Shown here: positions 823 to 64,000 of the stretch, one piece after another
Layout: the number at the start of each line of letters is the position of its first letter
Position numbering within the stretch: position 1 is the first letter of the stretch
From: Atopobium sp.
Lineage (GTDB): Bacteria > Actinomycetota > Coriobacteriia > Coriobacteriales > Atopobiaceae
Assembly: GCA_015258835.1 (NCBI GenBank)
Contig: JABZHN010000002.1
Span: 16,624-80,623, forward strand
Reading direction: 5' to 3'
Length of the DNA: 64,000 nucleotides
Translations under genes and position numbers: made by a program
Notes under the pieces: model-generated
Seen by the model: the letters and a program-made list of their open reading frames with translations, nothing else
Database searches by the model: none
What the model was told of the DNA's origin: nothing

Positions 823-2463
823 CTATGCCTCTAACTCTTTGTAGACAGGGAACCACTTAAGGGCGTCAACTGCCTCTTTTGCATCGGCAATTGGCTCGCG
901 GTTCAGACCCTGCCTAATTGCCTCCCCTGCAACGCCAACAGCAATACGCTCGGAGAACTCGGTAATCTTGGAGACTGGAGGAAGAATTGCCGCACCAGGC
1001 TTTGTGGTATCGACGATTCCACCAAGCGAGTGAGCTGCCAGGGAAATCATCTGGTCTGTGAGTAGGCGAGCCTTTGATGCAAGTGCGCCAAGTCCAAGGC
1101 CTGGGTAAATCAGCGCGTTGTTTGCCTGGCCAATCTGGTAGGTTACGCCGCCGAGCTCCACGTCATCGGATGGGACGCCGCAGGCTACAAGTGCACGACC
1201 ATCGGTCCAGGTCAGCAGGTCTTGGGCGGTTGCCTCCGCAAGTTTAGTTGGGTTGGACAGAGGGAAGACCATGGGGCGCTCGCAATGAGCTGCCATCTCA
1301 CGAATGATCTCCTCGGTGAAGGCGCCGTGAACGGTAGAGGTGCCAACCATGATTGTTGGGTGGACCGTCTTTACAACGGCCGCTAGGTTGGTGAGCTCAT
1401 CTGCGTTTGCGAACTCAGAACGCTTGCGAGCAAATGGCTTCTGCTGTGGAGTGAGGTTGTCCATATCGTCGAAGAGCAAGCCCTGACGATCTACCAGGTA
1501 GAAGCGCTTGCGAGCCTCTTCACGGTCCATTCCCTGATCCACAAATTCCTGAAGCACACGATCAGCGATGCCGCAACCAGCAGTTCCTGCGCCAAAGCAG
1601 AGATATACCTGGTCGACGAGTTTCTCGCCAGAAATATTGAGGCCGCCGAGGATGCCTGCAAGGGTAACAATACCAGTGCCCTCGACGTCGTCGTTGAAGA
1701 CAGGGTAGGTGTTCTTGTAGCGGTCCAGGATTGCTGCAGCGTGCGAGCGGCCGAAGTCCTCGAAGTGCAGGTAGAGGTTAGGGAAGAGCCTCTCGACGGT
1801 GGTTACAAAGTTGTCAATGAATGCGTTATAGCGATCTTCATCAACGCGCTTGTGGCGTTCGCCCAGGTATAGCGGGTCATCGAGAAGTTCCTGGCGGTTG
1901 GTGCCAGCATCAATAACAATAGGCATGATGCGGTTTGGATCAACGCCAGCTGCAGCGGTGTAAACCATGAGTTTACCGACGGAAATCTCGACACCGTTGG
2001 TGCCCCAGTCGCCAATACCCAGGATTGCTTCTGCGTCGGTGACGACAATCAGGTCGATGTCTCTACCTGCGGCTGCGTTCTTCAGCGAGGTTTCAAGGTC
2101 TTCAGGACGATCGACTGACAGGAAGCATGCATACTGCGGATCGACATAGCGCTGGGAGTACTGCTCAATATCCGGAGCAATAGTTGGGTCGTAGACAATA
2201 GGCATGAACTCTTCAACATGCTTGGAGAACAGGTTGTAGAACAGCGTGCGGTTCTCGGAGAAAAGCCTCATGAGATAGTGACGCTTTGTCTCGAGGTCAG
2301 GATATTGCTGGAAAAGCACGTATGCCTGCTCAGCTTGCTCCTCGATAGTCTGAATGTTTGGAGGTAGAAGTCCTACTAAGCCATATTTCTGGCGTTCCTC
2401 CTGCGTAAAAGCAGTTCCCTTGTTCAAAAATGGATCATTCAGTAGTTCAAAACCCGTCTTCAT
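823..2463 (-). CDS. mleS: NAD-dependent malic / malolactic enzyme
   Basis: 546 aa ([20 protein letters not shown]...) with malic-enzyme family signatures. It is immediately followed on the same strand by a permease gene, the mleS-mleP arrangement. Confidence 0.85.
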
Positions 2464-4826: not shown

Positions 4827-6407
4827 ATGTCCGAAGTAGAGAACAACATCGCTGGTAGCTCGGCCGCCGCTGACGCAACCGCCGCCGAGAACGTCGACGC
4901 AACCGAGGTCACCCCAGAGGCTTCCATCAACGACGAGCGTGCTCAGCGCCGTTCCCGTCGCCAGGCGCTCATCGACACTGGCATTGACCCATACCCAATC
5001 AAGTCCACCGTCACCGCTCACGTCGCTGAGCTGGAGGAGCGCTATGCTGACCTCGAGGACGGCCAGACTGGCGAGGAAGTCTATTCCGTGGCCGGCCGCG
5101 TCCGTGCCATCCGCAACCAGGGCAAGATCGCGTTTGTCGTGGTAGAGGACTTCACCGGCCAGATTCAGCTTTTCTGTCGCATCAACAACCTTGACGAGAA
5201 GAACTGGGAGCTCCTGGGTCTTCTCGACCTTGGCGACATCATCGGCGCAACCGGCGCCATCATGCGTACGCGCCGTGGCCAGCTTTCCCTGGCAGTCACC
5301 TCGCTGGAGGTCCTCTCCAAGTCGCTGCGTCCTCTGCCTGAGAAGTTCCACGGCCTCACCGACCGCGAGGTTCGTTATCGTCAGCGCTATGTTGACCTCA
5401 TCATGAACCCCGAGGTCCGCGACGTGTTTCGCAAGCGCTCCCAGATCATCTCCATCATCCGCCAGTTCATGGAGGCGGACGGTTACATGGAGGTTGAGAC
5501 CCCTGTTCTTCAGGAGATTCTTGGCGGCGCAAACGCAAAGCCATTCATCACGCACTACAACGCTCTGAACACCGAGAACTACCTGCGCATTGCAACCGAG
5601 CTTCCGCTGAAGCGCCTGCTTGTCGGCGGTCTTGAGCGCGTCTACGAGCTTGGTCGCCAGTTCAGGAACGAGGGCACCGACCTCACGCACAACCCAGAGT
5701 TCACTTCCATGGAGGCATACGCCGCCTACTCTGACCTGGCCGGCATGCGCGAGCTGTCCCAGAACCTCTTCCAGGAGATTGCCCGCAAGGCCTGCGACTG
5801 CGAGGAGGGCCACGAGGTCATCACCTATCAGGGCACCGAGGTTGACCTTTCCGGCAACTGGCGCGTCGCATCTCTGGCAGAGATTGCGTCCGAGGTCACT
5901 GGCGAGGAGCTCTCCATTGACACTCCTGTCGAGAAACTCCGTGCTGTCCTGGACCGCTACGAGATTGAGTGGAACCCAGAGTGGCAGGCCGGCAAGCTGC
6001 TGTTTGAGATCTACGACGAGCTTGGCGAGAAGAGCATCGTAAACCCAACCTTTGTCTGCGATTATCCTGCAGAGGTTTCTCCGCTCACCAAGCGCAAGGC
6101 AGACGATCCTCGCCTGACCGACCGCTTTGAGCTCATTATCTGCGGCGCCGAGTACGCAAACGCATATTCCGAGCTCAATGACCCTGTTGACCAGGAGGAG
6201 CGCTTTGCCGCCCAGATGGAGGCCAAGCGCCAGGGCGACGAAGAGGCTATGGAGTACGATTACGACTTCATCCGCGCACTTGAGTACGGCATGCCACCAG
6301 CGGGCGGCATCGGCTACGGCATTGACCGCATGATGATGCTCTTCTGCGATCAGCCTTCTATCCGTGACGTCCTTCTCTTCCCACAGCTCAAGCCTGAGAA
6401 ACGCTAA
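4827..6407 (+). CDS. lysS: Lysyl-tRNA synthetase (class II)
   Basis: Class II aaRS motifs (…FELIICGAEYANAYSELNDP…). The start is placed at ATG 4827, which is preceded by GGAGG and lies downstream of the greA terminator. ORF-track start 4788 is rejected because it lies inside the terminator. Confidence 0.9.
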   Translation: MSEVENNIAGSSAAADATAAENVDATEVTPEASINDERAQRRSRRQALIDTGIDPYPIKSTVTAHVAELEERYADLEDGQTGEEVYSVAGRVRAIRNQGKIAFVVVEDFTGQIQLFCRINNLDEKNWELLGLLDLGDIIGATGAIMRTRRGQLSLAVTSLEVLSKSLRPLPEKFHGLTDREVRYRQRYVDLIMNPEVRDVFRKRSQIISIIRQFMEADGYMEVETPVLQEILGGANAKPFITHYNALNTENYLRIATELPLKRLLVGGLERVYELGRQFRNEGTDLTHNPEFTSMEAYAAYSDLAGMRELSQNLFQEIARKACDCEEGHEVITYQGTEVDLSGNWRVASLAEIASEVTGEELSIDTPVEKLRAVLDRYEIEWNPEWQAGKLLFEIYDELGEKSIVNPTFVCDYPAEVSPLTKRKADDPRLTDRFELIICGAEYANAYSELNDPVDQEERFAAQMEAKRQGDEEAMEYDYDFIRALEYGMPPAGGIGYGIDRMMMLFCDQPSIRDVLLFPQLKPEKR

Positions 6408-6453
6408 GAGCTTGGAAGCATAGCTGCCTAGGCGCAGTACACAAACGTATCAG

Positions 6454-6489
6454 CCCGGTATCTGCTTGTTGCAGGTACCGGGCTTTTTG
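6454..6489 (+). terminator. Rho-independent terminator after lysS; member of a conserved hairpin family
   Basis: CCCGGTATCTGC-ttgtt-GCAGGTACCGGG followed by CTTTTT. Near-identical hairpins occur at 22373 and 36925. Confidence 0.75.
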
Positions 6490-6690
6490 TGCGACGACGC
6501 CGTGAAGCTCGCTGCGGAGACTGGGCCTCGGAGCTTGCGGAAGCGCGGTCTTCTCGGCAACGCGGGTTTCTCGCCAGGCGTTTGTGTGGTTCGTACGGAG
6601 GAGAAAAATCCAACGCGAGTCGTATGTTTGCAGAGCCTTCTGATGGGTATAAATCAGAAATATATAGAGAGTTTTGAGAGGTTTCAGCAC

Positions 6691-9359: not shown

Positions 9360-9543
9360 TATCGCAGCTAAAACGTACAGTTCTCTTGGTAGAAGCTCTT
9401 GGCGAGAAACCCGTCTTCTCCAAACCGTCACTACACGCACCGGCAACAAAACCGTATACTTGAAATGTTGAAACAAATTGAAGCCGTAAACGTACCAGAT
9501 CGCAAAACGCAGCCTGTAAGCTGCAAGTAATTGAGGGAGAGCC

Positions 9544-17004: not shown

Positions 17005-17137
17005 GCCTGATTTCTGCAAAGAATCTGTAAAATTTGCCTGATAACAGCAAAGAATCGGTGGATTTGCCTGATTTCATCAAAGAATCGGTGGCTCAAATAC
17101 AGATTCTTTGCACTTTTCAGGCTCGCTTTTCAGGCTC
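17005..17137. repeat. Intergenic modular repeat, 118-bp core element copy A (MITE/REP-like)
   Basis: Three about 30-bp direct subrepeats (GCCTGAtttcNNCAAAGAATC[T/G]GT…TTT) end in an inverted arm CAGATTCTTTGCACTTTTCAGGC. It is about 90% identical to copies at 24139..24255 and 37023..37140. Confidence 0.85.
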
Positions 17138-17189
17138 ACTTTTCACGCGGGACTTTGAAGCGCGCGTGAGATTGCCCCTCCAAGGAGCC

Positions 17190-17280
17190 TGATTTTCTCG
17201 CCATATCTGAATAATTTGCCGGAAAAGTTCACCATATCTGAGCTATTTGCCGGTTTTTCTCGCCAAGTCTGAGCTGTTTT
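17190..17280. repeat. Second repeat module (TTCTCGCCA[A/T]GTCTGAGCTATTTGCCGG units), copy A'
   Basis: About 30-bp direct subrepeats. A homologous copy lies at 23961..24066. Confidence 0.75.
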
Positions 17281-17464
17281 ACACAGACATGATGCGGTTT
17301 TCAGGCTGGCTAGACTTGATGGACAGCGCATTTGTACCAAGCTAGCTCCTACAGAAGGAAAGCACTCCTACATGCTGCATCGACCAGTTTGTGGAGAAAA
17401 ATTTCTCGAAAATTGAGACTAGACCAAAGTCAGAAAAGTCTATAGAATATCCTCTGCACTTGAT

Positions 17465-17540
<76 letters not shown>

Positions 17541-17551
17541 CTTGAATTTTC

Positions 17552-17576
17552 AGCCAGGCATTGCCTGGCTTTTTTC
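17552..17576 (+). terminator. Rho-independent terminator after tRNA-Thr
   Basis: AGCCAGGC-attg-CCTGGCT followed by TTTTTT. Confidence 0.7.
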
Positions 17577-17648
17577 GTGCGAATTTTAGGGCATTCGCGA
17601 CGTATCGCGTATGGCTTCTATAGACAACCGTAAAAGCCCGTATGCGTC

Positions 17649-17800
17649 TGGCGAGAAACCCGCTTGGAGTTGTGATGAGAAAATCGGTGGAGTTGTGACG
17701 AGAAAATCGGTGGAGTTGTGGCAAGAAACCCGCTTGAAGTTGTGGCCAGAAAACCGCATGGAATTGTGGCGAGAAAATCGCTTGGAATTGTGGAAAATAT
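17649..17800. repeat. Tandem array, about 6.5 x 23-24 bp units (GGCGAGAAA[A/C][C/T]CG[C/G]TTGGAGTTGT), degenerate
   Basis: Contiguous head-to-tail units with no unique spacers. The first unit begins with the dispersed 14-mer TGGCGAGAAACCCG. Confidence 0.85.
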
Positions 17801-17970
17801 TTGATAAGATACGCCCGGTTGGGTGGATTACGTTGACAAGATTTTTATTCAATCGTAATATTTTCCCGCTTACGAGGTAATACAGAAGTTCAACAAGACT
17901 TCCTGCGTACGTTAAACCGCAAGGTAAACAGCGTACACAATTGCTTCAAGAGTGCTTGAAAACGGTATTT

Positions 17971-18054
17971 GGGGATATGGCACAGCGGCAACTGCGGCGG
18001 ACTGTAAATCCGCTCTCTCTGAGTTCCTTGGTTCGAGTCCAAGTATCCCCACCA
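17971..18054 (+). tRNA. tRNA-Tyr (anticodon GTA), long variable arm
   Basis: GGGGATA/TATCCCC acceptor, anticodon loop ctGTAaa, and a type-II variable arm. CCA encoded. Confidence 0.8.
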
Positions 18055-18055
18055 C

Positions 18056-18131
18056 GCCCGTGTAGCTCAGTAGGTAGAGCACTTCGTTGGTAACGAAGAG
18101 GTCACCGGTTCAAATCCGGTCGCGGGCTCCA
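18056..18131 (+). tRNA. tRNA-Thr (anticodon GGT)
   Basis: Anticodon loop ttGGTaa, T-loop GGTTCAAATCC, and CCA encoded. It lies 1 nt after tRNA-Tyr. Confidence 0.85.
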
Positions 18132-18150
18132 TTTTTCAAGCGGCATTTAT

Positions 18151-18227
18151 GCCGGCGTAGCTCAGCTGGTTAGAGCACACGGCTCATACCCGTGACGTCA
18201 CTGGTTCGAATCCAGTCGCCGGTACCA
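18151..18227 (+). tRNA. tRNA-Met (anticodon CAT), elongator type
   Basis: Anticodon loop ctCATac. The anticodon stem CACGG/CCGTG lacks the three G-C pairs typical of initiator tRNAs. Confidence 0.8.
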
Positions 18228-18333
18228 GACTCTTTACGGCGTACATGTCCTAGACATTTGCGCCGTTGAGTATAAACAGACGTTTTTTCACCACGGTCTA
18301 GCCCGAGGGTTAGTTCCAGAAGGAGGATTGGCA

Positions 18334-19539
18334 ATGGCCAAGGAAAAGTTTGACCGCACAAAGCCACACGTAAACATCGGTACCATTGGTCACGTCGACC
18401 ACGGTAAGACTACCCTTACCGCAGCAATCACCAAGGTTCTCTCTGAGACCGAGGGCTGCAAGGCAGACTATACCGCCTTCGAGAACATCGATAAGGCTCC
18501 AGAGGAGCGTCAGCGTGGTATTACCATTTCCGTTGCTCACGTTGAGTACGAGACTTGGGAGCGCCATTACGCTCACGTCGACTGCCCTGGCCACGCAGAC
18601 TACATCAAGAACATGATTTCTGGTGCAGCTCAGATGGACGGCGCAATCCTCGTTATTGCTGCAACCGACGGTCCTATGGCTCAGACTCGTGAGCACATCC
18701 TTCTCGCACGTCAGGTCGGCGTTCCTTACATCGTCGTCTTCCTGAACAAGTGCGACATGGTCGACGATGACGAGCTCATCGACCTCGTCGAGATGGAGAC
18801 CCGTGACCTTCTCTCCGAGTACGACTTCCCAGGCGATGACCTTCCAATCATCCGTGGTTCCGCTCTCGGCGCTCTTAACGGCGAGGAGAAGTGGGTTGAG
18901 TCCATCCGTGAGCTCATGCACACTGTTGACTCCTACATCCCAACACCAGCTCGTGACAACGAGAAGCCATTCCTGATGGCAATCGAGGACGTCATGACTA
19001 TTTCTGGTCGTGGTACCGTTGCTACCGGCCGTGTTGAGCGTGGTGAGCTCAAGCTCAACGATCCAGTCGAGATCGTTGGTATTAAGCCAACTCAGAACTC
19101 TGTTGCTACCGGCATTGAGATGTTCCGTAAGACCATGGACTTCTGCGAGGCTGGCGACAACGTTGGTATTCTTCTTCGTGGTGTTAAGCGCGAGGACATC
19201 GAGCGCGGTCAGGTTCTCTGCAAGCCTGGTACCGTTACTCCACACAAGAAGTTCACCGGTGAGGTTTACGTTCTTACTAAGGAAGAGGGCGGCCGTCACA
19301 CCCCATTCTTCTCTGGTTACCGTCCACAGTTCTACTTCCGTACAACTGACGTAACCGGCGACATCTACGAGCTCACCGATGCAAACGGTGGCAAGGTAGA
19401 GATGGCTATGCCTGGTGACCACATCACCGTTGGCTGCGAGCTCATTCACCCAATCGCTCTTGAGCAGGGTCTGAAGTTCGCTATCCGCGAGGGTGGCCAC
19501 ACCGTCGGCGATGGCCGTGTTTCCACCGTCATCGAGTAA
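18334..19539 (+). CDS. tuf: Elongation factor Tu
   Basis: [32 protein letters not shown]…. The ATG at 18334 has AGGAGGA 7 nt upstream. It is the only tuf in the window. Confidence 0.95.
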
Positions 19540-19563
19540 CTTCTTTTAAAGTTGCTAACTTGC

Positions 19564-19594
19564 CCGGCGTGCTTTTTGCGCGCCGGGTTTTTTG
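19564..19594 (+). terminator. Rho-independent terminator after tuf
   Basis: CCCGGCG-N-CGCCGGG hairpin followed by TTTTTT. Confidence 0.75.
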
Positions 19595-19723
19595 TCGAGA
19601 AAAAATATGTGAACGCCTAGAGTAATTAGAGAAAAGTATTGACATCTCTGGGTAGTGGGTGCTAACCTAAGCAACCGCGTCACATTTCGAGAATACATCT
19701 CGTGACCGTGTTCAGGAGGATCA

Positions 19724-19873
19724 ATGCGTACACTCGTTACTCTCGCCTGCACTGAGTGCAAGCGTCGTAATTACACTACGGACAAGAACAAGTCCAACAA
19801 CCCAGATCGTATGGAGTTGAAGAAGTACTGCCCATGGTGCCACAAGCACACGGTACATCGCGAGACCCGCTAG
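19724..19873 (+). CDS. rpmG: 50S ribosomal protein L33
   Basis: 49 aa [49 protein letters not shown], with RBS GGAGGA. It is too short for the ORF track. Confidence 0.85.
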
Positions 19874-19891
19874 GCTAGGTGGGTTCGTTCT

Positions 19892-19967
19892 AGGCCAGTA
19901 GCTCCAATGGTAGAGCGGCGGTCTCCAAAACCGTTTGTTGAGGGTTCGAGTCCTTCCTGGCCTGCCA
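19892..19967 (+). tRNA. tRNA-Trp (anticodon CCA)
   Basis: AGGCCAG/CTGGCCT acceptor, anticodon loop ctCCAaa, lying between rpmG and secE as in many Gram-positives. Confidence 0.85.
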
Positions 19968-20038: not shown

Positions 20039-20401
20039 ATGGCAAATAAGGAGCGCAATAAGAGGAGCGCACGTAAGGCTCGCGCAGAAGAGCGCGCCCA
20101 GCGTGAGTCCCTTCAGGCTGAAGCTACTCCTGAAGCTTCTGCTAAGGCCACTAAGGTCGAGGCAAAGAAGCAGGAGAAGTCCATTCAGCGTAACGCTAAC
20201 CCTGGCTTCTTTGGCCGCCTGGGTGCTTATTTTGCAGGCGTTCGTACAGAAATGCACCGCGTTGTGTGGCCTTCAAGCTCTGAGCTTGCTGGTTTCTCTG
20301 TAGCCGTAATTGCAACAATCATTTTCTTTGGCTTGGTAACTTGGCTGGTTGATACTGGCATTGTTGCTGGTCTCGTCGCCTTTACTGGACTGAGGGGATA
20401 A
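20039..20401 (+). CDS. secE: Preprotein translocase subunit SecE
   Basis: Basic N-terminal tail and a single C-terminal TM helix. Its position before nusG supports the call. Confidence 0.8.
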   Translation: MANKERNKRSARKARAEERAQRESLQAEATPEASAKATKVEAKKQEKSIQRNANPGFFGRLGAYFAGVRTEMHRVVWPSSSELAGFSVAVIATIIFFGLVTWLVDTGIVAGLVAFTGLRG

Positions 20402-20404
20402 TCA

Positions 20405-20950
20405 ATGGCTAAGCGCTGGTATGTAGTTCACACCTATTCAGGTTATGAGAACAAGGTAAAGACAGACCTTGAGCACCGTATTGAGACCTATGGCCTTGAG
20501 CGTGCTGTTGTTGATATTCAGATTCCTACTGAGGAAGTTACTGAGGTCAAGGACGGCGGTAAGCGCGAGACCAAAGAGTCCAAGGTTTTCCCAGGTTACG
20601 TTCTTGTTCGCATGGAGCTGGATGACAATACTTGGGCTGTTGTTCGCAACACCCCAGGCGTAACTGGTTTTGTTGGCATTGACGGCAAGCCAGTTCCTCT
20701 GCGTCGTGATGAGTTCGATAAGATCATGCGTCGCGGCGGTATGAAGACGGGTAGCCCTGTACCTAAGCGCACAGCAACCAATATTGAGGTCGGTCAGGCA
20801 ATTCACGTTCTTTCTGGTCCTCTCGCTGACTTCGACGGAACTGTTTCTGAGGTCAACGCAGAGTCCGGCAAGATTAAGGTTATGCTCACCATCTTTGGTC
20901 GCGAGACTCCGGTTGAGCTCACCATGGATCAAATTTCCCTGATAGACTAG
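20405..20950 (+). CDS. nusG: Transcription antiterminator NusG
   Basis: NGN domain (MAKRWYVVHTYSGYENKV…) plus KOW. Confidence 0.9.
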   Translation: MAKRWYVVHTYSGYENKVKTDLEHRIETYGLERAVVDIQIPTEEVTEVKDGGKRETKESKVFPGYVLVRMELDDNTWAVVRNTPGVTGFVGIDGKPVPLRRDEFDKIMRRGGMKTGSPVPKRTATNIEVGQAIHVLSGPLADFDGTVSEVNAESGKIKVMLTIFGRETPVELTMDQISLID

Positions 20951-21475: not shown

Positions 21476-21632
21476 TGTTTACTCCCGTCAGCCATGTGTG
21501 TGGCTGACGGTTGTTTTGTCAGAGCATCCGACGTTAGTGCACGTAGTTGGGTTTCTCGCCAAGAGGGCGTAACTATGGACGGAAGATGCAGGAGTGGGAG
21601 GGCAGACGCCCGCTAACCACAGGAGGTACATA

Positions 21633-22340: not shown

Positions 22341-22372
22341 GCTAAACGCTTAGAAGTACCTAGCACGTTTAA

Positions 22373-22405
22373 TCCGGTATCTGCTTGCAGGTGCCGGATT
22401 TTTCT
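22373..22405 (+). terminator. Terminator/attenuator after rplA (hairpin-family member)
   Basis: TCCGGTATCTGC-ttgc-AGGTGCCGGA followed by TTTTT. Confidence 0.7.
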
Positions 22406-23898: not shown

Positions 23899-23960
23899 AT
23901 TTGCCTGGCGAGAAACCCGTGTGCTCGCAAATCGTATGAAGCTGAGGTGCTTTTGCTGCA

Positions 23961-24066
23961 GCCTGAAAAGTGCATCAAGTCTGAGTGATTTGCCGGATTT
24001 TCTCGCCATGTCTGAGCTATTTGCCTGTTTTTCTCGCCTTGTCTGAGTACTTTTGCTCAGACTTGG
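23961..24066. repeat. Second repeat module, copy B' (begins with an inverted copy of the core end GCCTGAAAAGTGCA)
   Basis: Homologous to 17190..17280. It ends in the palindrome GTCTGAG-tacttttg-CTCAGAC. Confidence 0.75.
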
Positions 24067-24138
24067 TGTGCATTTCAGGCTCATAAATCCTGCGTGACAA
24101 CTCATAAATTCCGCGTGACTTACCCCAGCTTCCTCGCA

Positions 24139-24255
24139 CCTGATTTCCTCAAAGAATCTGTAACTTTTGCCTGAAAACGTTAAAGAATCTGTGGATTTGC
24201 CTGATTTTGCAAAAGAATCGGTAGCTCAAATACAGATTCTTTGCACTTTTCAGGC
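24139..24255. repeat. Intergenic modular repeat, core element copy B
   Basis: About 90% identical to 17005..17122 and 37023..37140. Confidence 0.85.
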
Positions 24256-24635
24256 GCACGCAGCAAAAGGCCGGCGCGCCCGGCGAGAAATCCGTGCGCT
24301 CGCACTCACGCCTGGCGAGAAACCCGTGCGCTCGGAGCGCGCTCGGGGCTCGTGGAGCGCCATGCGAAGCGACGCGGCGGGGGAGAGCCGCTCACCGAAA
24401 GCGATTTCTGCCTCCGTGGACCTTCTCCACAAAATCTTCACAACTAGAAAAGACGAGTTAGTTAAGGATTTACCTGCAACATAACGTTTGTGCAGTTGAA
24501 AAACATAAACGCGATAATATAGTCAAAACGTCTTAAAAAATCAAGTGTTTTTCTGTTGACGCGCATTAAAATCTTGACTAAATTACTAGGTTGCGACAAT
24601 TGCCACCTTCCACCCTTTTGAAGGAGGACAACCTG

Positions 24636-43868: not shown

Positions 43869-44087
43869 GGCGAGAAGTGCGGTGTTGTGTAAGTCGTGTG
43901 ATGACATGAAAAAATATCAGCTAGCTTGAAATTCTCGCCCCATTTTTGCTCAATAAGGTCTAATATTGTTCATTGCGTCTTTCTATGGGACACGTATGTC
44001 TCGAGGATGCAGATGGCTCCTAGTTCGCCAAACTAGGAGGTGCGAGGCGATCCCCGCACTTAAAACCCCAAGAGTTAAGGAGAAACC

Positions 44088-52410: not shown

Positions 52411-53352
52411 ATGTCCGAATTTATCCGACCAAACGTGTCGGTAGATGAAATCGGCGCAAACGTCGCTCGTGTGAGCGTAGAGCCGCTTGAGCGTGGCTAT
52501 GGTGACACGCTTGGCAACTCCCTCCGCCGCGTACTGCTTTCCTCTCTTGAGGGAGCTGCGGTTGAGGCCATCCAGATTGATGGCGTTCAGCATGAGTTCA
52601 CTACGGTTGAAGGCGTCTATGAGGACGTTACTGACATCGTTCTGAACGTTAAGGGCCTAGTTTTCCGCAACACCAACAACTCTGATGAGGCTGAGGCTTC
52701 CATCTCTGTTGATGGTCCTTGCAAAGTCACTGGTGCTGATCTTGATGTTCCTATGGGCTACGAGCTGGTTAACCCAGCTCAGCACATTTGCACTCTTGCT
52801 GAGGGAGCTCATCTTTCCATGAGACTTCGCCTTGGTAATGGTCGTGGTTATGTTTCCGGTGAGGATAACGAGCGTGAGAGCGATCCAATTGGATTCATTC
52901 ACGTTGACTCGATCTTCTCGCCAGTTCGCCGCTGCGCTAAGGCTGTTGAGCCTTGCCGTGTTGGCCGTCACACCGACTATGATCGTCTGGTGCTTGAGGT
53001 TGAGACCAATGGTGCAATCAGCCCTCGCGAGGCTGTCGTTGAGGCTGCAAACATCATTAACCAGCACATGAGCGCATTCATGGGACTTACTGATTTTGAC
53101 GAGACTCAGGAAGAGGCTTCGATTTTTGCTAAGGCAGACGTCGAGGACGATTCCGAGCTTGAGAAGCAGGTTGAGGATTTGGACCTTTCCGTCCGTTCTT
53201 ACAACTGCCTCAAGCGTGCAGGAATTCACTCTGTCCGTCAGCTCGTTGATTTCTCTGAGAACGATCTTCTCAACATCAGAAACTTTGGTGTTAAGTCTAT
53301 TGAAGAAGTCAAGGAAAAGCTCGAGAGCATGGGCCTGTCCCTTAAGGCTTAG
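52411..53352 (+). CDS. rpoA: DNA-directed RNA polymerase subunit alpha
   Basis: Start MSEFIRPN… with RBS GGAGGT. The alpha-CTD HhH is …VRSYNCLKRAGIHSVRQLVDFSENDLLNIRNFGVKSIEEVKEKL…. Confidence 0.95.
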   Translation: MSEFIRPNVSVDEIGANVARVSVEPLERGYGDTLGNSLRRVLLSSLEGAAVEAIQIDGVQHEFTTVEGVYEDVTDIVLNVKGLVFRNTNNSDEAEASISVDGPCKVTGADLDVPMGYELVNPAQHICTLAEGAHLSMRLRLGNGRGYVSGEDNERESDPIGFIHVDSIFSPVRRCAKAVEPCRVGRHTDYDRLVLEVETNGAISPREAVVEAANIINQHMSAFMGLTDFDETQEEASIFAKADVEDDSELEKQVEDLDLSVRSYNCLKRAGIHSVRQLVDFSENDLLNIRNFGVKSIEEVKEKLESMGLSLKA

Positions 53353-53944: not shown

Positions 53945-55657
53945 ATGATTGAGTTCAAAAACGTATCTTTCGCATACGGTACGTCAGCTGCAGCACAATC
54001 TTTGACTGACTCTGCTTCTAAAGATGCCATAGGAGCCACTGAGAGCCAATCTCCGCACCCAATGGCACTAACTCTTGATAACGTTTCATTTACCCTAAAG
54101 CCGGGCTCTAGAACGGTTGTGCTTGGCCACAATGGTTCAGGCAAGTCAACGCTTGCAAATCTTTGTAATGCATCACTTTTTCCTCTATCCGGAGAGGTTT
54201 TAGTAGACGGCAATTCAGTGACCGTAGTGCCGTCTACTCAGATTTCTTCCGTTGTGGGAATGGTTCGTCAAGATCCAACAGCGCAGCTTGTTTGTGCAAC
54301 TGTCTTTGATGAAGTTGCCTTTGGTCCTGCTAATCTTGGTTTGCCAAAAGAAGAGATAGTTTCTTGCGTTACTCAAACACTGGAGCTTTGTGGCATTGCC
54401 GATTTGATTGATGCGCCTACCCATACGCTTTCTGGAGGCCAACAGCAGCTTGTTTCTATTGCAGCAGCGCTTTCAGTGCATCCACGTTATCTGGTGCTTG
54501 ATGAGGCATTTGCTCAGCTTGATACTCGATTCAGAAATCACCTTTCTAACCTGGTAAACACTCTTGTTACAAACGGAATGGGTATGCTTGAGATTTCTCA
54601 TTCGTTTGAGTCTCTTCCCGGGGCTGACCAGGTACTTGTTTTGGAGAAAGGCCAGCTAGTTTGGTCGGGAACTCCCACAGAGTTTCTCTTGGATGCAAAT
54701 GCAATCGCAAACGCTGGTTTTGATGATGCACTCACAGCAACAGCGCATATAGCTGCACAGGCTGGCTATAAGTTTGATGTGCCTTTTAACGCATCAGAGT
54801 TTGTTGCGTTTCTTGTTCAGAACAACCTTGCGTTTGACGCTTTGGATACCCTTGTGTATCAGCGTGCTCTTGAGGTAGTGCGAGCAAATAACTATGACGG
54901 AATACAAGCGCTTGGAGAGGCGCACGAGTTGGCAATTTGTGGCGTTTCTCATGCGTTTGACAAGCCAGTCCTGCACGATATAACGCTTTCTTCCACGGGG
55001 GAGCTTACTGTTTTGGTGGGCGCTTCTGGTTCTGGAAAAACAACCTGTGCCCGAATAGCTGCTGGCCTCATAGAGGCTGATACTGGTCATGCAACAATCG
55101 ATGCACGACTAGTAAGTCCTGGAGATGTCGGCATGTGTTTCCAGCGCCCTCAAGATCAGCTCTTTGCCCAAACTGTTGCTGAAGATATTGCGTTTGGTCC
55201 AACTAACAAGGGTTTCTCGCCAGATGATGTTGAGGCGCTTGTCGCGTATGCGGCAGCGCGGGTGGGACTTGACCAGCAGGCCATGGACGCGTCTCCGTTG
55301 ACGCTTTCTGGTGGCCAGGCTCGTCGCGCAGCGCTTGCAGGAACGCTGGCCTGCGCAACGTACGCGGTAGTGTTTGATGAGGCAACGTCTGGACTTGATG
55401 GTGAGGCGCGCTCGCAGGTGCTGCATCTTGCTCGTGAGCTGGCAAACGAAGGCAAAGCGGTTTTTGCAATCACCCATGATGTAAGTGAATGGCTTCCTTT
55501 TGCTGACAGAGTAGTGTTTCTCGAGAAGGGCTGTGTTGTTGCAGACGTCAACGTACAAGAAGCGCAGACAACCCCAGAGATATACGAGGCTGCGCAGCTT
55601 GATTGCCCGCTGTTTGTAAGCGTATTGCATGAGCTTTTGGAGGCCTGCTATGTCTAA
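53945..55657 (+). CDS. ecfA: Energy-coupling-factor transporter ATPase, fused EcfA1-EcfA2 (two ABC nucleotide-binding domains)
   Basis: Two Walker A sites (GHNGSGKST, GASGSGKTT) and two LSGGQ signatures. Its position after rplQ is as in Firmicutes ecfA-ecfA'-ecfT. Confidence 0.85.
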   Translation: MIEFKNVSFAYGTSAAAQSLTDSASKDAIGATESQSPHPMALTLDNVSFTLKPGSRTVVLGHNGSGKSTLANLCNASLFPLSGEVLVDGNSVTVVPSTQISSVVGMVRQDPTAQLVCATVFDEVAFGPANLGLPKEEIVSCVTQTLELCGIADLIDAPTHTLSGGQQQLVSIAAALSVHPRYLVLDEAFAQLDTRFRNHLSNLVNTLVTNGMGMLEISHSFESLPGADQVLVLEKGQLVWSGTPTEFLLDANAIANAGFDDALTATAHIAAQAGYKFDVPFNASEFVAFLVQNNLAFDALDTLVYQRALEVVRANNYDGIQALGEAHELAICGVSHAFDKPVLHDITLSSTGELTVLVGASGSGKTTCARIAAGLIEADTGHATIDARLVSPGDVGMCFQRPQDQLFAQTVAEDIAFGPTNKGFSPDDVEALVAYAAARVGLDQQAMDASPLTLSGGQARRAALAGTLACATYAVVFDEATSGLDGEARSQVLHLARELANEGKAVFAITHDVSEWLPFADRVVFLEKGCVVADVNVQEAQTTPEIYEAAQLDCPLFVSVLHELLEACYV

Positions 55658-56570: not shown

Positions 56571-57467
56571 ATGAACTCAGAAACATCACAGAATATTGCA
56601 TCAAATTGCAGTTTTGATGCATGCGAGGAGTCTTCGGCTGAACCTTCAGTTCCTGAGACTCTCGCTAAAGCTTCTTCTGAGCCTGAAGCCACGCTTGTTA
56701 TCCAGCTAGGTTATCGCGGCGCTGCATTCTGCGGCTTTGCCGAGCAGCCCACTCAGCGCACCGTGGCAGGCGACCTTCGCCGCGCGCTTCAGACCGTTTT
56801 GCGCAGAGAGGTCGAGCTCACCTGCGCGGGCAGAACCGACGCCGGCGTGCACGCCCAGGCCCAGTACGTGAGCCTACCTGTGTACGGCGCTGAGCTGGCG
56901 CTGTCTGGCGAGAAACTCGTCCGCTCGCTTACCGCTCTGACCGACGATGACATCTCTATCCGACAACTCTTCCGCGCCCCACAGGGTTTCTCGGCACGCT
57001 TTGATGCCCAGGCTCGCTCGTACCGCTATCGCATTTGTGCAGGTAGCGCTCGTCCCGTGCTGGGCTGGGACCACGTGTGGTGGTACAACGGCCACTTGGA
57101 CGCAGAGCTTATGGACAAGGCGGCGCAGGCGTTGGTGGGGGAGCACGATTTCAAGAGCTTCTGCAAGGCAATTTCTGCCGAGGGCAAGCCAACACATCGT
57201 TTTGTGGAGCGCCTTACCGTTGAAGAAATTGAAGAAGCTGGCGAGAAACTCATTGCAGTTGATATTACGGGAAACGCCTTCTTGCATAACATGGTGCGCA
57301 CGATTGTGGGCACGCTGGTTGAGATTGGCCGAGGTCACAGGCCTGTTGAGTGGATCGACGAGGTTCTAGCTGCTCAGAATAGAATTGCCGCTGGTAGTTG
57401 TGCGCCTGCTCAGGGCCTCACGTTTGTAAGCGTTCGCTATCCAGAGGGTGTTTTGCAACCCTGGTAG
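56571..57467 (+). CDS. truA: tRNA pseudouridine(38-40) synthase TruA
   Basis: …LGYRGAAFCGFAEQ…GRTDAGVHAQAQ… with the catalytic Asp context. ATG 56571 is preferred (GGGAG RBS) over the GTG at 56544. Confidence 0.85.
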   Translation: MNSETSQNIASNCSFDACEESSAEPSVPETLAKASSEPEATLVIQLGYRGAAFCGFAEQPTQRTVAGDLRRALQTVLRREVELTCAGRTDAGVHAQAQYVSLPVYGAELALSGEKLVRSLTALTDDDISIRQLFRAPQGFSARFDAQARSYRYRICAGSARPVLGWDHVWWYNGHLDAELMDKAAQALVGEHDFKSFCKAISAEGKPTHRFVERLTVEEIEEAGEKLIAVDITGNAFLHNMVRTIVGTLVEIGRGHRPVEWIDEVLAAQNRIAAGSCAPAQGLTFVSVRYPEGVLQPW

Positions 57468-59740: not shown

Positions 59741-60907
59741 TTAACGCCTGTCCATGAGCGATTTAAACGTTTGTGCTATGCCGTCATTTTTGACACGGAA
59801 AAATCCCTCTTTGGCTAGATATGCATAGCGTGCAAACTTGTTATCTTTTGGCAGAGCAATACCTCGCACCTGTGCAAAGAAAGCCTTTCCAGAGCCTGAG
59901 ATTGCTGGGTTTTCAAACACGCGCTTTGCGTCCATGCGCTCAAAGCTCTTGGCGAGAAGATCGTGCACTTCTGAGTCAGTCTCACCTGCAGCATCATGTT
60001 CTTCTCGCCAGGTAAGCGCGTCTTTTGTAAGCAGCGCGTAGTTGATGCCGCGCAGTGTGAGCGCGTTGAGCACCACGTCTGAGGTAATGTTGCGTGCGTC
60101 CACAACATCCATCATGTCGTTCCAGCGCTCAAGCGGAATTTTAGGCTGACGCTGCGCAAAGGTAGCGGCTTCTGCATAGCCATTCTCGCGATAGTTGTAG
60201 AGCGCAGAGTCTGTGTACACTATGCGAGCTCTGCAGCAATGCGAGGCAATGAGGAAGGGGTTGTCCACCCAGCCTGCACCGGGGACTTCTTTGAAATTGA
60301 TGTGGTTCTGGGTTAAGAATTCCTTGCGATAGAGCGCCGTCCAAATGGCAGGATGGTGCAGTAGAAGCTGTGCCATCTGATCAATTGAACAAGGCAGCTG
60401 CTTGGGTTTGACGCGGCCCTTATATGCGCAGGGAACTCTGTACTCGGCAGCGCCGGCAGCAGCTTTAAACTGCGACTTTGCTCCCGCACGGCCATTTTTC
60501 TGATTGCCAAATACGCGCCAATAGGCAGAGCGGGCAATATCTACCTGGCTTTCTCCACCGTTTGCTTGGATAAGATCAACAAGCTCTTGAACCATGCTTG
60601 GCTCAAGGTAATCGTCAGGCTCTACAATACCCACCCATGAGCCGTGAGCTGCGGCAATGCCACGATTACACGTTGCTCCGTAACCCTCATTTTCTTTGTC
60701 GATGATGATTATGCGACCATCACGGGCAGCGTATGCTTCCAAAAGAGCCAAAGACGAGTCAGTTGAGCCATCGTTTAGGCAGATAATCTCCAGGTTTGTG
60801 TAGCTCTGTGATTGAATACTTGCCAGGCATTGCTCCAGATAGTCTGCAACGTTGTATATGGGCACAACAAGAGAAACCAAAGGTTGGTGGTTTTGAGCGT
60901 GACTCAT
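59741..60907 (-). CDS. Family-2 glycosyltransferase with a C-terminal accessory domain
   Basis: …LVSLVVPIYNVADYLEQCLASIQSQSYTNLEIICLNDGSTDSS…GIVEPDDY… (DXD). Confidence 0.75.
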   Translation of the reverse strand: MSHAQNHQPLVSLVVPIYNVADYLEQCLASIQSQSYTNLEIICLNDGSTDSSLALLEAYAARDGRIIIIDKENEGYGATCNRGIAAAHGSWVGIVEPDDYLEPSMVQELVDLIQANGGESQVDIARSAYWRVFGNQKNGRAGAKSQFKAAAGAAEYRVPCAYKGRVKPKQLPCSIDQMAQLLLHHPAIWTALYRKEFLTQNHINFKEVPGAGWVDNPFLIASHCCRARIVYTDSALYNYRENGYAEAATFAQRQPKIPLERWNDMMDVVDARNITSDVVLNALTLRGINYALLTKDALTWREEHDAAGETDSEVHDLLAKSFERMDAKRVFENPAISGSGKAFFAQVRGIALPKDNKFARYAYLAKEGFFRVKNDGIAQTFKSLMDRR

Positions 60908-62393: not shown

Positions 62394-64000
62394 ATGAAGA
62401 TTATCAAGCGCAATGGCTCAGAGGTCACCTTCGAGGTTGAGAAGATTGTTAACGCAATCGCTAAGGCTAACGCAGAGGTCCCTGAGGATCAGCGCCTGAC
62501 TGAGCGTGAGATTCAGTTTGCTTCCCTCAACGTTACCGATGAGTGTGAGAAGGCTGGACACACCGTCACCGTCGAGGAGGTCCAGGACCTTGTCGAGGAT
62601 CAGCTCATGGCTCTTGACCGCTTTGAGGTTGCTCGTAAGTACATCATTTACCGCTACATCCAGAACCAGAAGCGTCACAAGAACACCACCGATGACAAGA
62701 TTCTGTCTCTGATTGAGTGCAACAACGAGGAAGTCAAGCAGGAGAACTCCAACAAGAATCCTACTGTTGTTTCTGTTCAGCGTGACTACATGGCTGGTGA
62801 GGTTTCTAAGGACCTCGTTCAGCGTGAGCTTCTTCCAGAGGATATTGTTGCTGCTCACAACGAGGGTCTCATTCACTTCCACGATTCCGATTACTTTGCA
62901 CAGCACATGCACAACTGTGACCTCATCAACCTTGATGACATGCTGCAGAACGGCACTGTTATCTCCGGTACTCTGATTGAGCGTCCACACAGCTTCTCCA
63001 CTGCATGCAACATTGCAACTCAGATCATTGCTCAGGTAGCATCTTGCCAGTACGGTGGTCAGTCCATCTCCCTGGCTCACCTTGCTCCTTTTGTTGATGT
63101 TTCTCGTAAGAAGATTCGCAAGACCGTTATGGAGGAGATGAACTCCGTCGGTGTTGAGCTCTCTGCTGAGCAGCTCAACGAGATGGTTGAGAAGCGCCTT
63201 CGCGATGAGGTTTCTCGTGGCGTTCAGACCATTCAGTACCAGGTTGTCACTTTGATGACCACCAACGGTCAGGCTCCTTTCATTACTGTCTTCATGTATC
63301 TCAACGAGGCAAAGAATGAGCAGGAGAAGCAGGATCTTGCACTCATCATCGAGGAGATGCTCCGTCAGCGTTACCAGGGCGTAAAGAACGAGGAGGGTGT
63401 CTGGATTACTCCTGCATTCCCTAAGCTCATCTACGTTCTTGAAGAGGATAACGTTTACGAGGATTCCAAGTACTACTACCTCACTCAGATGGCTGCAAAG
63501 TGCACCGCTCGCCGCCTTGTTCCTGACTACATCTCTGAGAAGAAGATGAAGGAGTACAAGCTTTCTAAGGGCGAGAAGGAAGGCGAGGGCGATACCTTCA
63601 CCTGCATGGGTTGCCGTTCCTTCCTGACTCCAGACCGTTCTGGTAATGGCTTCAACAACGTTGCTCGCGCTAAGAACTATGAGCCAAACAAGCCTAAGTA
63701 CTATGGCCGCTTCAACCAGGGTGTTGTAACTATCAACCTTCCTGACGTTGCTCTTTCTGCTGGTCGTGATATGGACAAGTTCTGGAAGATCTTTGATGAA
63801 CGTCTTGAGCTTTGCCATCGTGCACTTCGTGCTCGTCACGATCGCCTGAAGGGTACTCTGTCTGATGCTGCTCCTATCCTTTGGCAGTACGGCGCACTTG
63901 CTCGTCTGGACAAGGGTGAGGTTATCGATCCTTTGCTTTACGGCGGATATTCCACTATCTCCCTTGGTTATGCAGGCCTATACGAGTGCGTTAAGGCTAT
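62394..64000 (+). CDS. nrdD: Anaerobic ribonucleoside-triphosphate reductase (class III RNR), partial; continues beyond the window
   Basis: RBS AAGGAG then ATG. N-terminal ATP-cone (MKIIKRNGSEVTFEVEKIVNAI…), then …AAHNEGLIHFHDSDYF…. The long antisense ORF 62418..63839 is spurious. Confidence 0.8.
   Translation, partial: MKIIKRNGSEVTFEVEKIVNAIAKANAEVPEDQRLTEREIQFASLNVTDECEKAGHTVTVEEVQDLVEDQLMALDRFEVARKYIIYRYIQNQKRHKNTTDDKILSLIECNNEEVKQENSNKNPTVVSVQRDYMAGEVSKDLVQRELLPEDIVAAHNEGLIHFHDSDYFAQHMHNCDLINLDDMLQNGTVISGTLIERPHSFSTACNIATQIIAQVASCQYGGQSISLAHLAPFVDVSRKKIRKTVMEEMNSVGVELSAEQLNEMVEKRLRDEVSRGVQTIQYQVVTLMTTNGQAPFITVFMYLNEAKNEQEKQDLALIIEEMLRQRYQGVKNEEGVWITPAFPKLIYVLEEDNVYEDSKYYYLTQMAAKCTARRLVPDYISEKKMKEYKLSKGEKEGEGDTFTCMGCRSFLTPDRSGNGFNNVARAKNYEPNKPKYYGRFNQGVVTINLPDVALSAGRDMDKFWKIFDERLELCHRALRARHDRLKGTLSDAAPILWQYGALARLDKGEVIDPLLYGGYSTISLGYAGLYECVKA

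Follow-up and report, generated by a model that had tools for sequence, protein, structure and literature searches.

Among the short words that bacterial genomes carry in great excess, the uptake sequences are represented by the DUS of the Neisseriaceae (AT-GCCGTCTGAA) and the USS of the Pasteurellaceae (AAGTGCGGT and ACAAGCGGT), which are often arranged as close inverted pairs that act as terminators. Other dispersed signals have properties of their own: strong co-orientation with replication is what defines Chi and the KOPS/SRS sequences, REP elements are palindromes that lie outside genes, and the sites of parS, matS, Noc and SlmA are palindromic and number in the tens. Uptake sequences occur in approximately 770-1,900 copies, 34-65% of them in ORFs, where they sit in permissive codons and preferentially in poorly conserved genes (PMC2817400), and a sequence-specific uptake requirement has been described as unique to the Neisseriaceae and Pasteurellaceae, both proteobacterial, with dialects that distinguish groups of species (PMC3630211).

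The stretch of DNA analysed here (64 kb of a metagenome contig, hereafter the window) contains eight perfect copies of the 14-mer TGGCGAGAAACCCG, against approximately 0.001-0.002 expected (0.002 under an order-4 Markov model). A first-pass annotation had placed them at 9400, 17649, 23906, 24313 and 37173 on the plus strand and at 6563, 33206 and 36984 on the minus strand, and all of these positions and strands agreed with ours. It had also proposed a comparison with a shuffled control, and within the window the 14-mer was found in none of 100 dinucleotide shuffles. The imperfect copies it had listed were present as well, one with two mismatches at 24281 and two with a single mismatch at 37842 and 21548, together with GGCGAGAA fragments at 43869 and 43932; overall, 24 copies in the window differ from the 14-mer by at most two mismatches, whereas 0.54 would be expected. 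Its description of the 14-mer as non-palindromic agrees with the absence of self-complementarity seen here.

On a curated gene map, all eight perfect copies of the window are non-coding, the ORFs that overlap those at 6563, 23906, 24313 and 36984 having been rejected as genes because they are start over-calls or spurious ORFs over repeats. The earlier statement that the motif is always intergenic stands for these eight copies only: copies with one mismatch fall within genes at 1617, 55209 and 56906, related contigs have genic perfect copies (in dapB and in genes for an MBL-fold hydrolase, a HAD hydrolase and a helicase-like protein), and the 8-9-nt core is strongly enriched in genes. Predicted terminator hairpins lie 5' of six copies (hairpins at 6452, 9331, 17552, 21485, 23866 and 36925), as the annotation had it, but at a distance of 11-79 nt and not of 40-90 bp. 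In the interval from these terminators to the following promoter, the intergenic copies of consensus sequence cluster as tandem arrays and within mosaic repeat modules, and their distance to promoters is not fixed, ranging from 40 to more than 240 nt.

The multiple alignment of the copies showed that, beyond the motif, only a pyrimidine before the T is conserved and that the flanks are unrelated; solo copies have nothing in common beyond 14-15 nt. No 8- to 12-mers of the window are more frequent than those that make up the motif (GGCGAGAA, 42 occurrences; TGGCGAGAA, 27; TGGCGAGAAA, 20), and for the 9-mer TGGCGAGAA the 27 occurrences compare with 3.6 expected under an order-4 Markov model of the window. 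A position profile, built from 169 sites of the core GGCGAGAA in the window and in other contigs of the group, displays T at position -1 in 72% of the sites, A or G at +8, nearly free positions at +9 and +10, C at +11 in 90%, and mostly G at +12. The C at +11 is found in 25 of the 27 TGGCGAGAA sites of the window, and sites well inside genes keep both the T at -1 and the C at +11 in the two orientations (C in 85% and 84%). The 14-mer is therefore the best-matching form of a bipartite word, T-GGCGAGAA-NNN-C-G (T-GGCGAGAA-R-N-N-C-G). As its conservation is bipartite and does not decay uniformly, the profile is unlike what would be left over from decayed repeat copies; it fits contacts made by a protein, by which the word is predicted to be recognised.

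Genes hold 23 of the 42 GGCGAGAA sites of the window and 44% of its bipartite sites. When synonymous codons were permuted within each gene of the window, TTCTCGCC was observed 12 times in the antisense orientation against 1.35 expected, and 11 times in the sense orientation against 5.2; among all coding 8-mers it is the strongest outlier relative to this shuffle, and the next outliers include its overlapping neighbours. In 99 independent genes from other contigs, after removal of the genes with the perfect copy used for contig retrieval, TGGCGAGAA occurred 21 times in sense (2.8 expected) and 16 times in antisense (1.3 expected). Under a stricter null, in which the protein, the codon usage and every dinucleotide were preserved, TGGCGAGAANNNC was counted 11 times in the genes of the window (1.4 expected) and 22 times in 90 independent, trimmed genes (3.6 expected), and in either set the observed count was reached by none of 300 shuffles. 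The enrichment of the word in genes is thus 6-8-fold and concerns both strands, with similar sense and antisense counts, and the same codon solutions are used repeatedly, namely GGC-GAG-AAR (G-E-K), TTC-TCG-CCA (F-S-P), TCT-CGC-C (S-R) and CTC-GCC (L-A). The word stands in frame within intact genes beyond what the protein requires, as uptake sequences do. These data show that it influences synonymous codon choice and is written in genes as far as synonymous codons permit; being found on both strands, this genic enrichment cannot come from transposition or insertion. The window gene list includes one spurious ORF of 473 aa (62418-63839, minus strand), which is not a called gene and is probably an antisense ORF in an nrdD gene that runs off the window end; as it contributes one site, its effect is negligible.

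No strand is preferred. The bipartite TGGCGAGAANNNC sites of the 64 kb divide into 11 on the plus and 14 on the minus strand, and the 27 core sites into 12 and 15; the genes of the window are almost all in one direction, and the GC skew is positive in 7 of 8 bins of 8 kb. Overall density is approximately 0.4 sites per kb; spacers reach approximately 1.5 per kb and genes 0.25-0.35 per kb, with zero sites in a 14-kb block of ribosomal-protein operons and few or none in most of rpoB and rpoC. In other assemblies, the unselected DNA flanking the window matches or exceeds it in density, one flank having 3 sites in 8 kb and the other 4-7 in approximately 6 kb. Extrapolated from approximately 0.4 per kb, the word would be present hundreds of times per genome. 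The basis of these comparisons is the 64-kb window and approximately 0.3 Mb of related DNA, and most of the related DNA was retrieved via the word itself; this retrieval bias was countered by removing the trigger copies and by using the unselected flanks, and genes outside the window are simple long-ORF calls.

Within the spacers, the word is associated with longer repeats (Table 1). Module A is a dispersed repeat that accompanies the motif and is itself not a motif site, while the 31-nt units of module B, read in the minus orientation, are bipartite sites (GGCGAGAA-AAT-C); both modules are dispersed at 80-90% identity among unrelated loci. There, a recurrent order is apparent, which leads from the terminator hairpin through CGGGTTTCTCGCCA, module A, module B and one or two TGGCGAGAAACCCG copies to the next gene. 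The right-hand mosaic unit, CGCC-TGGCGAGAAACCCG-TGCGCTCGCA, occurs one to two times with a 32-nt period, and only a subset of copies precede TGCGCTCGCA, which is able to pair with GCGAG. The copy at 17649, which the first-pass annotation regarded as the seed of a tandem array, is indeed unit 1 of six 24-nt units, and the array ends approximately 40 nt upstream of a promoter-like site, TTGACA-17-TAATAT, at 17833 (tRNA-tuf operon). Arrays and mosaic embedding of this kind would also be expected of a selfish repeat or of a DNA-binding protein that acts cooperatively.

The view that the motif flanks MITE cores was only partly sustained, since the copies at 36984 (minus) and 37173 (plus) do bracket a 127-nt repeat module, but without a target-site duplication and with no transposase nearby. 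Inverted copies were found to bracket modules elsewhere too, as the annotation had suggested checking, at five or more unrelated loci, among them L125, L134, L154, L155 and L199. Such inverted pairs lie 150-600 nt apart and differ in the content between them, some forming bounded elements of 200-650 nt; five of the eight perfect copies do not belong to a bracketing inverted pair. The flanks of the bracketing pairs do not match, so that none displays a target-site duplication, and a Pfam analysis of ten motif-flanked genes at other loci identified housekeeping functions only, with no transposase or recombinase. Searches with Rfam at gathering thresholds returned tRNAs and the L10 leader only, and no RNA family over the motif or the modules. 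The suggestion that the motif might simply be part of a longer known repeat or of an annotated IS end was not borne out, the longer repeats being built around the word and not corresponding to a known IS.

Table 1. Coordinates of the word, of its bipartite sites and of the associated repeats in the window
Feature	Position	Strand	Context
Bipartite site TGGCGAGAAACTC	1618..1630	-	Within malic enzyme gene
Bipartite site	6023..6035	+	Within lysS, codons L-G-E-K-S
89-nt segment	6492..6580		Present in window, absent from L195; TTTGTG direct repeat at bounds
Perfect 14-mer	6563..6576	-	lysS-clpC spacer, 79 nt past lysS terminator, inside the 89-nt strain-variable segment
Perfect 14-mer	9400..9413	+	47 nt past clpC terminator, upstream of disA; kept in L195 and L331-L333
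Module A	17005..17131	+	Three 30-nt direct units (GCCTGATTTCnnCAAAGAATCTGTrrATTT) and one inverted unit
Module B copy	17187..17307	-	Two bipartite sites, at 17191 and 17253, within 17187..17272
Tandem array	17649..17793	+	Six 24-nt variant units (TGGCGAGAAACCCG, TGATGAGAAAATCG etc.), after tRNA-Thr
One-mismatch copy TGGCGAGAAACCCA	21548..21561	-	rplK-rplA spacer, 38 nt past terminator
Perfect 14-mer	23906..23919	+	11 nt past rplL terminator; opens a segment of ~113 nt missing in L004
Module B	23980..24081	-	Two 31-nt units, GCCGGATTTTCTCGCCATGTCTGA..., at 23992..24046
Module A copy	24138..24264	+	83% identical to the copy at 17005
32-nt tandem duplication	24278..24334	+	Two-mismatch copy at 24281 and perfect copy at 24313, each followed by TGCGCTCG
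Bipartite site	32386..32398	-	Antisense in rpoC, TTC TCG CCA = F-S-P
Bipartite site	32952..32964	+	Within arsR-like gene
Perfect 14-mer	33206..33219	-	50 nt past arsR-like gene, ~90 nt upstream of rpsL promoter-like site
Perfect 14-mer	36984..36997	-	29 nt past hairpin at 36925; left half of inverted pair around module A
Module A copy	37023..37149	+	88% identical to the copy at 17005
Perfect 14-mer	37173..37186	+	Right half of inverted pair; 42 nt upstream of LMW phosphatase gene
One-mismatch copy	37842..37855	-	3' of LMW phosphatase gene; with the copy at 37173 (+) flanks the gene in inverted orientation
Bipartite site	52911..52923	-	Antisense in rpoA-like gene, F-S-P codons
Bipartite site, 13/14 of full motif	55210..55222	-	Antisense in ABC ATPase gene
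Bipartite site, 13/14	56906..56918	+	Within truA-like gene
Second bipartite site of truA-like gene	57239..57251	+	Genic
Bipartite site	59950..59962	+	Glycosyltransferase gene, antisense to gene
Bipartite site	59998..60010	-	Glycosyltransferase gene, sense to gene

Comparison with orthologous spacers of related strains, another check that had been proposed, revealed that the motif-bearing spacers are hypervariable, through indels, a replaced core and changes in copy number. The 24-nt array consists of six units in the window, five in L005, two in L004 and one in L133. L004 is without nucleotides 23907-24020, a deletion between TTTGCCTG repeats, and has a single unit in place of the 32-nt duplication at 24278..24334. 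The rpsJ-LMWPc spacer of L005 displays a matching inverted pair around a completely different core. In L004, the counterpart of the copy at 33206 is the degenerate GGCATTTCTCGCCA, within a diverged and expanded block, and the block around this copy is replaced or expanded in both L004 and L007. At least four alleles of the lysS-clpC spacer exist, one of them an empty form without the 89-nt segment, and others being found in L331-L333. A BLAST search with the 89-nt segment that is present or absent in this spacer found no other copy in all the related DNA, and the segment was ruled out as a member of a mobile unit family, being single-copy in all data. L155 had been considered as an orthologous rplL-rpoB spacer and was dropped, because its large gene does not encode RpoB and, on visual inspection, resembles Mfd or RecG.

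Proteins of the window recur unchanged in many assemblies, GCA_000564995.1 among them, which marks the source as a common organism rather than an artefact of assembly; the GreA sequence recurs identically in approximately 9,900 blocks of the assembly index. Among RpoB-anchored loci, RpoB identity to the window is 99-100% for three records titled Atopobium sp. (L004, L005 and L007), 85% for an uncultured Olsenella sp., approximately 84% for other Atopobiaceae and approximately 76% for Collinsella. The exact 14-mer was absent from all of the 78 loci of other Coriobacteriia (0/78), and in the orthologous loci of Collinsella, Enorma and Eggerthellaceae the core was not enriched by the codon-shuffle test; the background there amounts to 0.17 GGCGAGAA per kb, mostly in conserved G-E-K/N codons. 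In Olsenella sp. L006, the density is 0.72 per kb, with 14 occurrences in genes against 3.5 expected and C at +11 in 16 of 17 sites; these sites have G at +8 (GGCGAGAA-G-NN-C) and no preference for T at -1, a form that reads as a variant of the same word. The taxonomic sampling behind these comparisons is small.

A metagenome scan retrieved approximately 20 contigs that represent further genomic regions of Atopobium-like organisms, and several of these contigs pair as orthologues at only 82-88% identity and hence come from different species. In these pairs, motif positions stay 95-98% identical, with 94-100% in single pairs, and once the trigger copies are left out they are identical in 76 of 80 cases, against a background of approximately 85%. 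A mutational intermediate is seen at one orthologous spacer site, where one species has TGGCGAGAAACCC and the other TAGCGAGAAAATC, and the difference is due to point substitutions and not to insertion. Overall, these data show that the word is lineage-specific, is maintained between species and has accumulated on both strands, largely by point substitution, to approximately 0.4 sites per kb. Among viral contigs scanned for the 14-mer, the matches were singletons at chance level only, and no word-rich phage emerged.

Set against the described systems, the word most resembles DUS and USS. Like them, it is short, sharply defined, non-palindromic, hugely over-represented and equally frequent in both orientations; it enters genes through permissive codons, although few of its sites fall in the most conserved ones, and is enriched in spacers near terminators; weaker flanking positions surround a strong core; and, within a small sampling, it is common to related species, with a dialect in a neighbouring lineage. 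It differs from them in that its host belongs to a Gram-positive actinobacterial lineage (Atopobiaceae, Coriobacteriia) for which no uptake specificity has been described, in its bipartite layout (9 + 3N + 1-2), in reaching about half the density seen in H. influenzae or N. meningitidis, in lying 11-79 nt after terminators instead of forming them, with inverted pairs 150-600 nt apart, and in its strain-variable arrays of variant units and its embedding in mosaic repeats of 300-650 nt. As uptake sequences are the only kind of genome-wide signal compared here to combine the shared properties listed above, the reading we tentatively favour, while granting it somewhat less than an even chance, is that the word is an uptake-type signal of own-kind DNA, recognised by a protein and kept by biased uptake and recombination. 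A sequence-specific protein would read the asymmetric word on double-stranded DNA, and a surface or competence-associated receptor would prefer DNA that bears it. Homologous recombination of the preferred DNA would then drive and maintain the word across related Atopobiaceae species, where it would thereby mark own-kind DNA. The mosaics and arrays of the spacers would be secondary, extra copies being harmless there and duplicated by slippage or recombination. No competence or pilin genes were seen in the approximately 0.3 Mb of mostly motif-selected DNA, a sample too small to bear on uptake, and full-text literature searches found the sequence in no paper and nothing on uptake sequences or competence in Atopobium or Coriobacteriia.

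The annotation had offered two explanations, a site for an asymmetric DNA-binding protein, which fits, and a recombination or transposition end, which is insufficient alone. The first would also be served by a sequence-specific DNA-binding protein that is abundant in the cytoplasm and has a different role, the frequency of the word being kept by selection for many sites; this is the main rival, to which we give perhaps one chance in a few. Such a protein may organise or anchor the chromosome, form a boundary or roadblock at gene ends, or activate from upstream of stable-RNA and ribosomal promoters. A bipartite, asymmetric footprint of 13-14 bp is typical of protein recognition; consensus copies stand at gene boundaries, intergenic sites are clustered at spacings of 24, 31 and 32 nt, arrays would allow cooperative binding under this reading, and the six-unit array lies approximately 40 nt upstream of the tRNA-tuf promoter-like site. 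Known high-specificity nucleoid and partition sites are, however, palindromic and in the tens, against approximately 0.4 per kb here, the distance to promoters varies from 40 to more than 240 nt, and hundreds of sites at synonymous positions of ordinary genes, on either strand, are not readily explained. An operator of a regulon transcription factor, for instance for genes of the translation apparatus, would account for the many perfect copies that adjoin ribosomal, tRNA, rpoB and clpC operons, and is the most improbable of the alternatives: the word is non-palindromic, far too frequent, variable in orientation and distance, situated mostly just past the upstream terminator and not at promoters, and present beside unrelated housekeeping genes and within coding regions. 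Sigma-54 and ECF promoters, the DnaA box, parS, the CIRCE, ClgR and CtsR operators, integron attC and dif are not known to fit in sequence, copy number or coding enrichment.

That the word is instead the terminal inverted repeat or building block of selfish or neutral mosaic repeats (MITE-, BIME- or NIME-like) that transposition or recombination has dispersed would explain the spacers, not the genes, and we regard it as unlikely. In its favour, inverted copies surround modules A/B at 36984/37173 and at the five further loci named above, these modules recur at unrelated loci with 80-90% identity, strains are hypervariable in the spacers, and the 89-nt presence/absence polymorphism has a 6-nt direct repeat. 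As in the BIMEs of enterobacteria and the NIMEs of Neisseria, spacers hold combinations of short repeats in alternating orientation, with tandem units, downstream of genes and variable between strains; as in MITEs, some elements of 200-650 nt are bounded by inverted 14-mers and have internal modules dispersed elsewhere. The mosaic combination expected of REP/BIME sequences was thus found in the spacers, but their imperfect palindrome of 20-40 nt was not: unlike in BIMEs and NIMEs, the word is neither a REP-like palindrome or hairpin nor a dRS3-like 20-bp inverted repeat, it is enriched in genes, and no link to a RAYT-type transposase or a phage integrase was seen. Unlike in MITEs, the pairs have no target-site duplication, length and content are variable, the flanks of many solo ends are unrelated, no autonomous partner turned up, with no transposase among the ten flanking genes, and coding DNA is enriched in the end sequence. 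Solo copies are alike over 14-15 nt only, the same pair surrounds an unrelated core in L005, the 89-nt segment carries one copy of the word and is single-copy, and conservation is bipartite; above all, the coding enrichment on both strands contradicts mobile repeats as the sole explanation. A polar recombination or segregation signal, either a Chi site (for RecBCD, AddAB or AdnAB) or a KOPS/SRS-type guide for a translocase, seems very improbable. With these the word shares an over-represented 8-9-nt core throughout genes and spacers, and its core contains GAGAA, which faintly resembles the SpoIIIE recognition sequence, GAGAAGGG; yet it displays no strand skew (11 plus, 14 minus, despite near-uniform gene direction and GC skew), similar sense and antisense counts in genes, a far higher over-representation and a consensus reaching 14 nt.

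Returning to the uptake reading, it is possible, though we consider it rather doubtful, that the word is a true DNA uptake sequence in a clade of human-associated Atopobiaceae, which would be the first outside the Neisseriaceae and Pasteurellaceae, and no Gram-positive lineage would have had one before. If so, these bacteria would perform sequence-selective natural transformation, with a new, independently evolved receptor reading T-GGCGAGAA-NNN-CG, and dialects would separate Atopobium-like from Olsenella-like species. Should it serve another protein instead, the word remains a genome-wide signal of unusual strength and clarity that affects synonymous codon choice, and its variable arrays are a ready marker for strain typing. 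Uptake specificity, known only from two families of Gram-negative bacteria, has influenced thinking about the reasons for DNA uptake and about how species barriers to recombination arise; in a common human-associated Gram-positive lineage, a word with this genomic signature would make testable the independent evolution of this specificity and of its receptor, as well as the natural transformability of the lineage, which would offer a handle for the genetics of these poorly tractable anaerobes.

Module A, the dispersed repeat of the motif-bearing spacers, is 127 nt long. Within it a 30-nt unit (GCCTGATTTCnnCAAAGAATCTGTrrATTT) occurs three times in direct orientation, and one further unit is inverted. 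Aside from its three copies in the window, the module is also present at the further loci L084, L085, L112, L125, L131, L134, L154, L155, L160 and L199, and copies at unrelated loci share 80-93% identity. Several predicted terminator hairpins likewise have a sequence in common, CCCGGTATC...GATACCGGG followed by TTTCTTGTGCG, which also occurs in hairpins of L104, L112, L131, L132 and L184, and because of this shared sequence the terminators themselves seem to be members of a dispersed repeat family. Their descending arm and tail (CGGGTTTCT) are similar to the 14-nt motif in its minus-strand form.

Location of repeats and genes (window coordinates unless a locus is named)
Feature	Position	Strand	Description
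Module A	17005-17131, 24138-24264, 37023-37149
Terminator hairpins (predicted)	6452-6484, 22371-22400, 36925-36955		common sequence
Palindrome GTTACGAAGGGACAGTCCCTTCGTAAC	L006 7439-7500, 23114-23180		tandem pairs directly 3' of genes
Phosphatase gene	37229-37762		low-molecular-weight phosphotyrosine phosphatase/ArsC-type, PF01451
473-aa ORF	62418-63839	minus

The S10 operon, normally contiguous, is split in the window by the phosphatase/ArsC-type gene, which lies between rpsJ and rplC with spacers of its own on either side; inverted motif copies (37173+ and 37842-) stand on its two sides. Gene order is also unusual for Actinomycetota in that tuf lies within tRNA(Tyr-Thr-Met)-tuf-tRNA(Trp)-secE-nusG (17465-19967), and rpsJ directly follows fusA, without tuf (34332-36780). 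The stretch around the arsR-like gene, with rpoC on one side and rpsL on the other (32709-33273), is a replacement hotspot: of the two Atopobium sp. loci compared with it, L004 (17661-18338) carries a diverged arsR allele and one additional ORF, which by eye looked GNAT-acetyltransferase-like, and L007 (7517-9307) carries about 1.8 kb of sequence unlike that of the window. At the right end (62394-64000), the 473-aa ORF is probably spurious; in other assemblies nrdD (740 aa, plus strand) begins at the matching position, and here it would extend past the window end.

Other spacer repeats occur in related organisms. The Olsenella sp. locus L006 has a different one of its own, the perfect and REP-like palindrome GTTACGAAGGGACAGTCCCTTCGTAAC. 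In Atopobium sp. L005, the spacer that separates rpsJ from the phosphatase gene (20281-20619) has, where module A would stand, a different set of short repeats with the words GGTTTTGGATCA and GTAATTATGTG, which suggests that more repeat families exist in this group of organisms.
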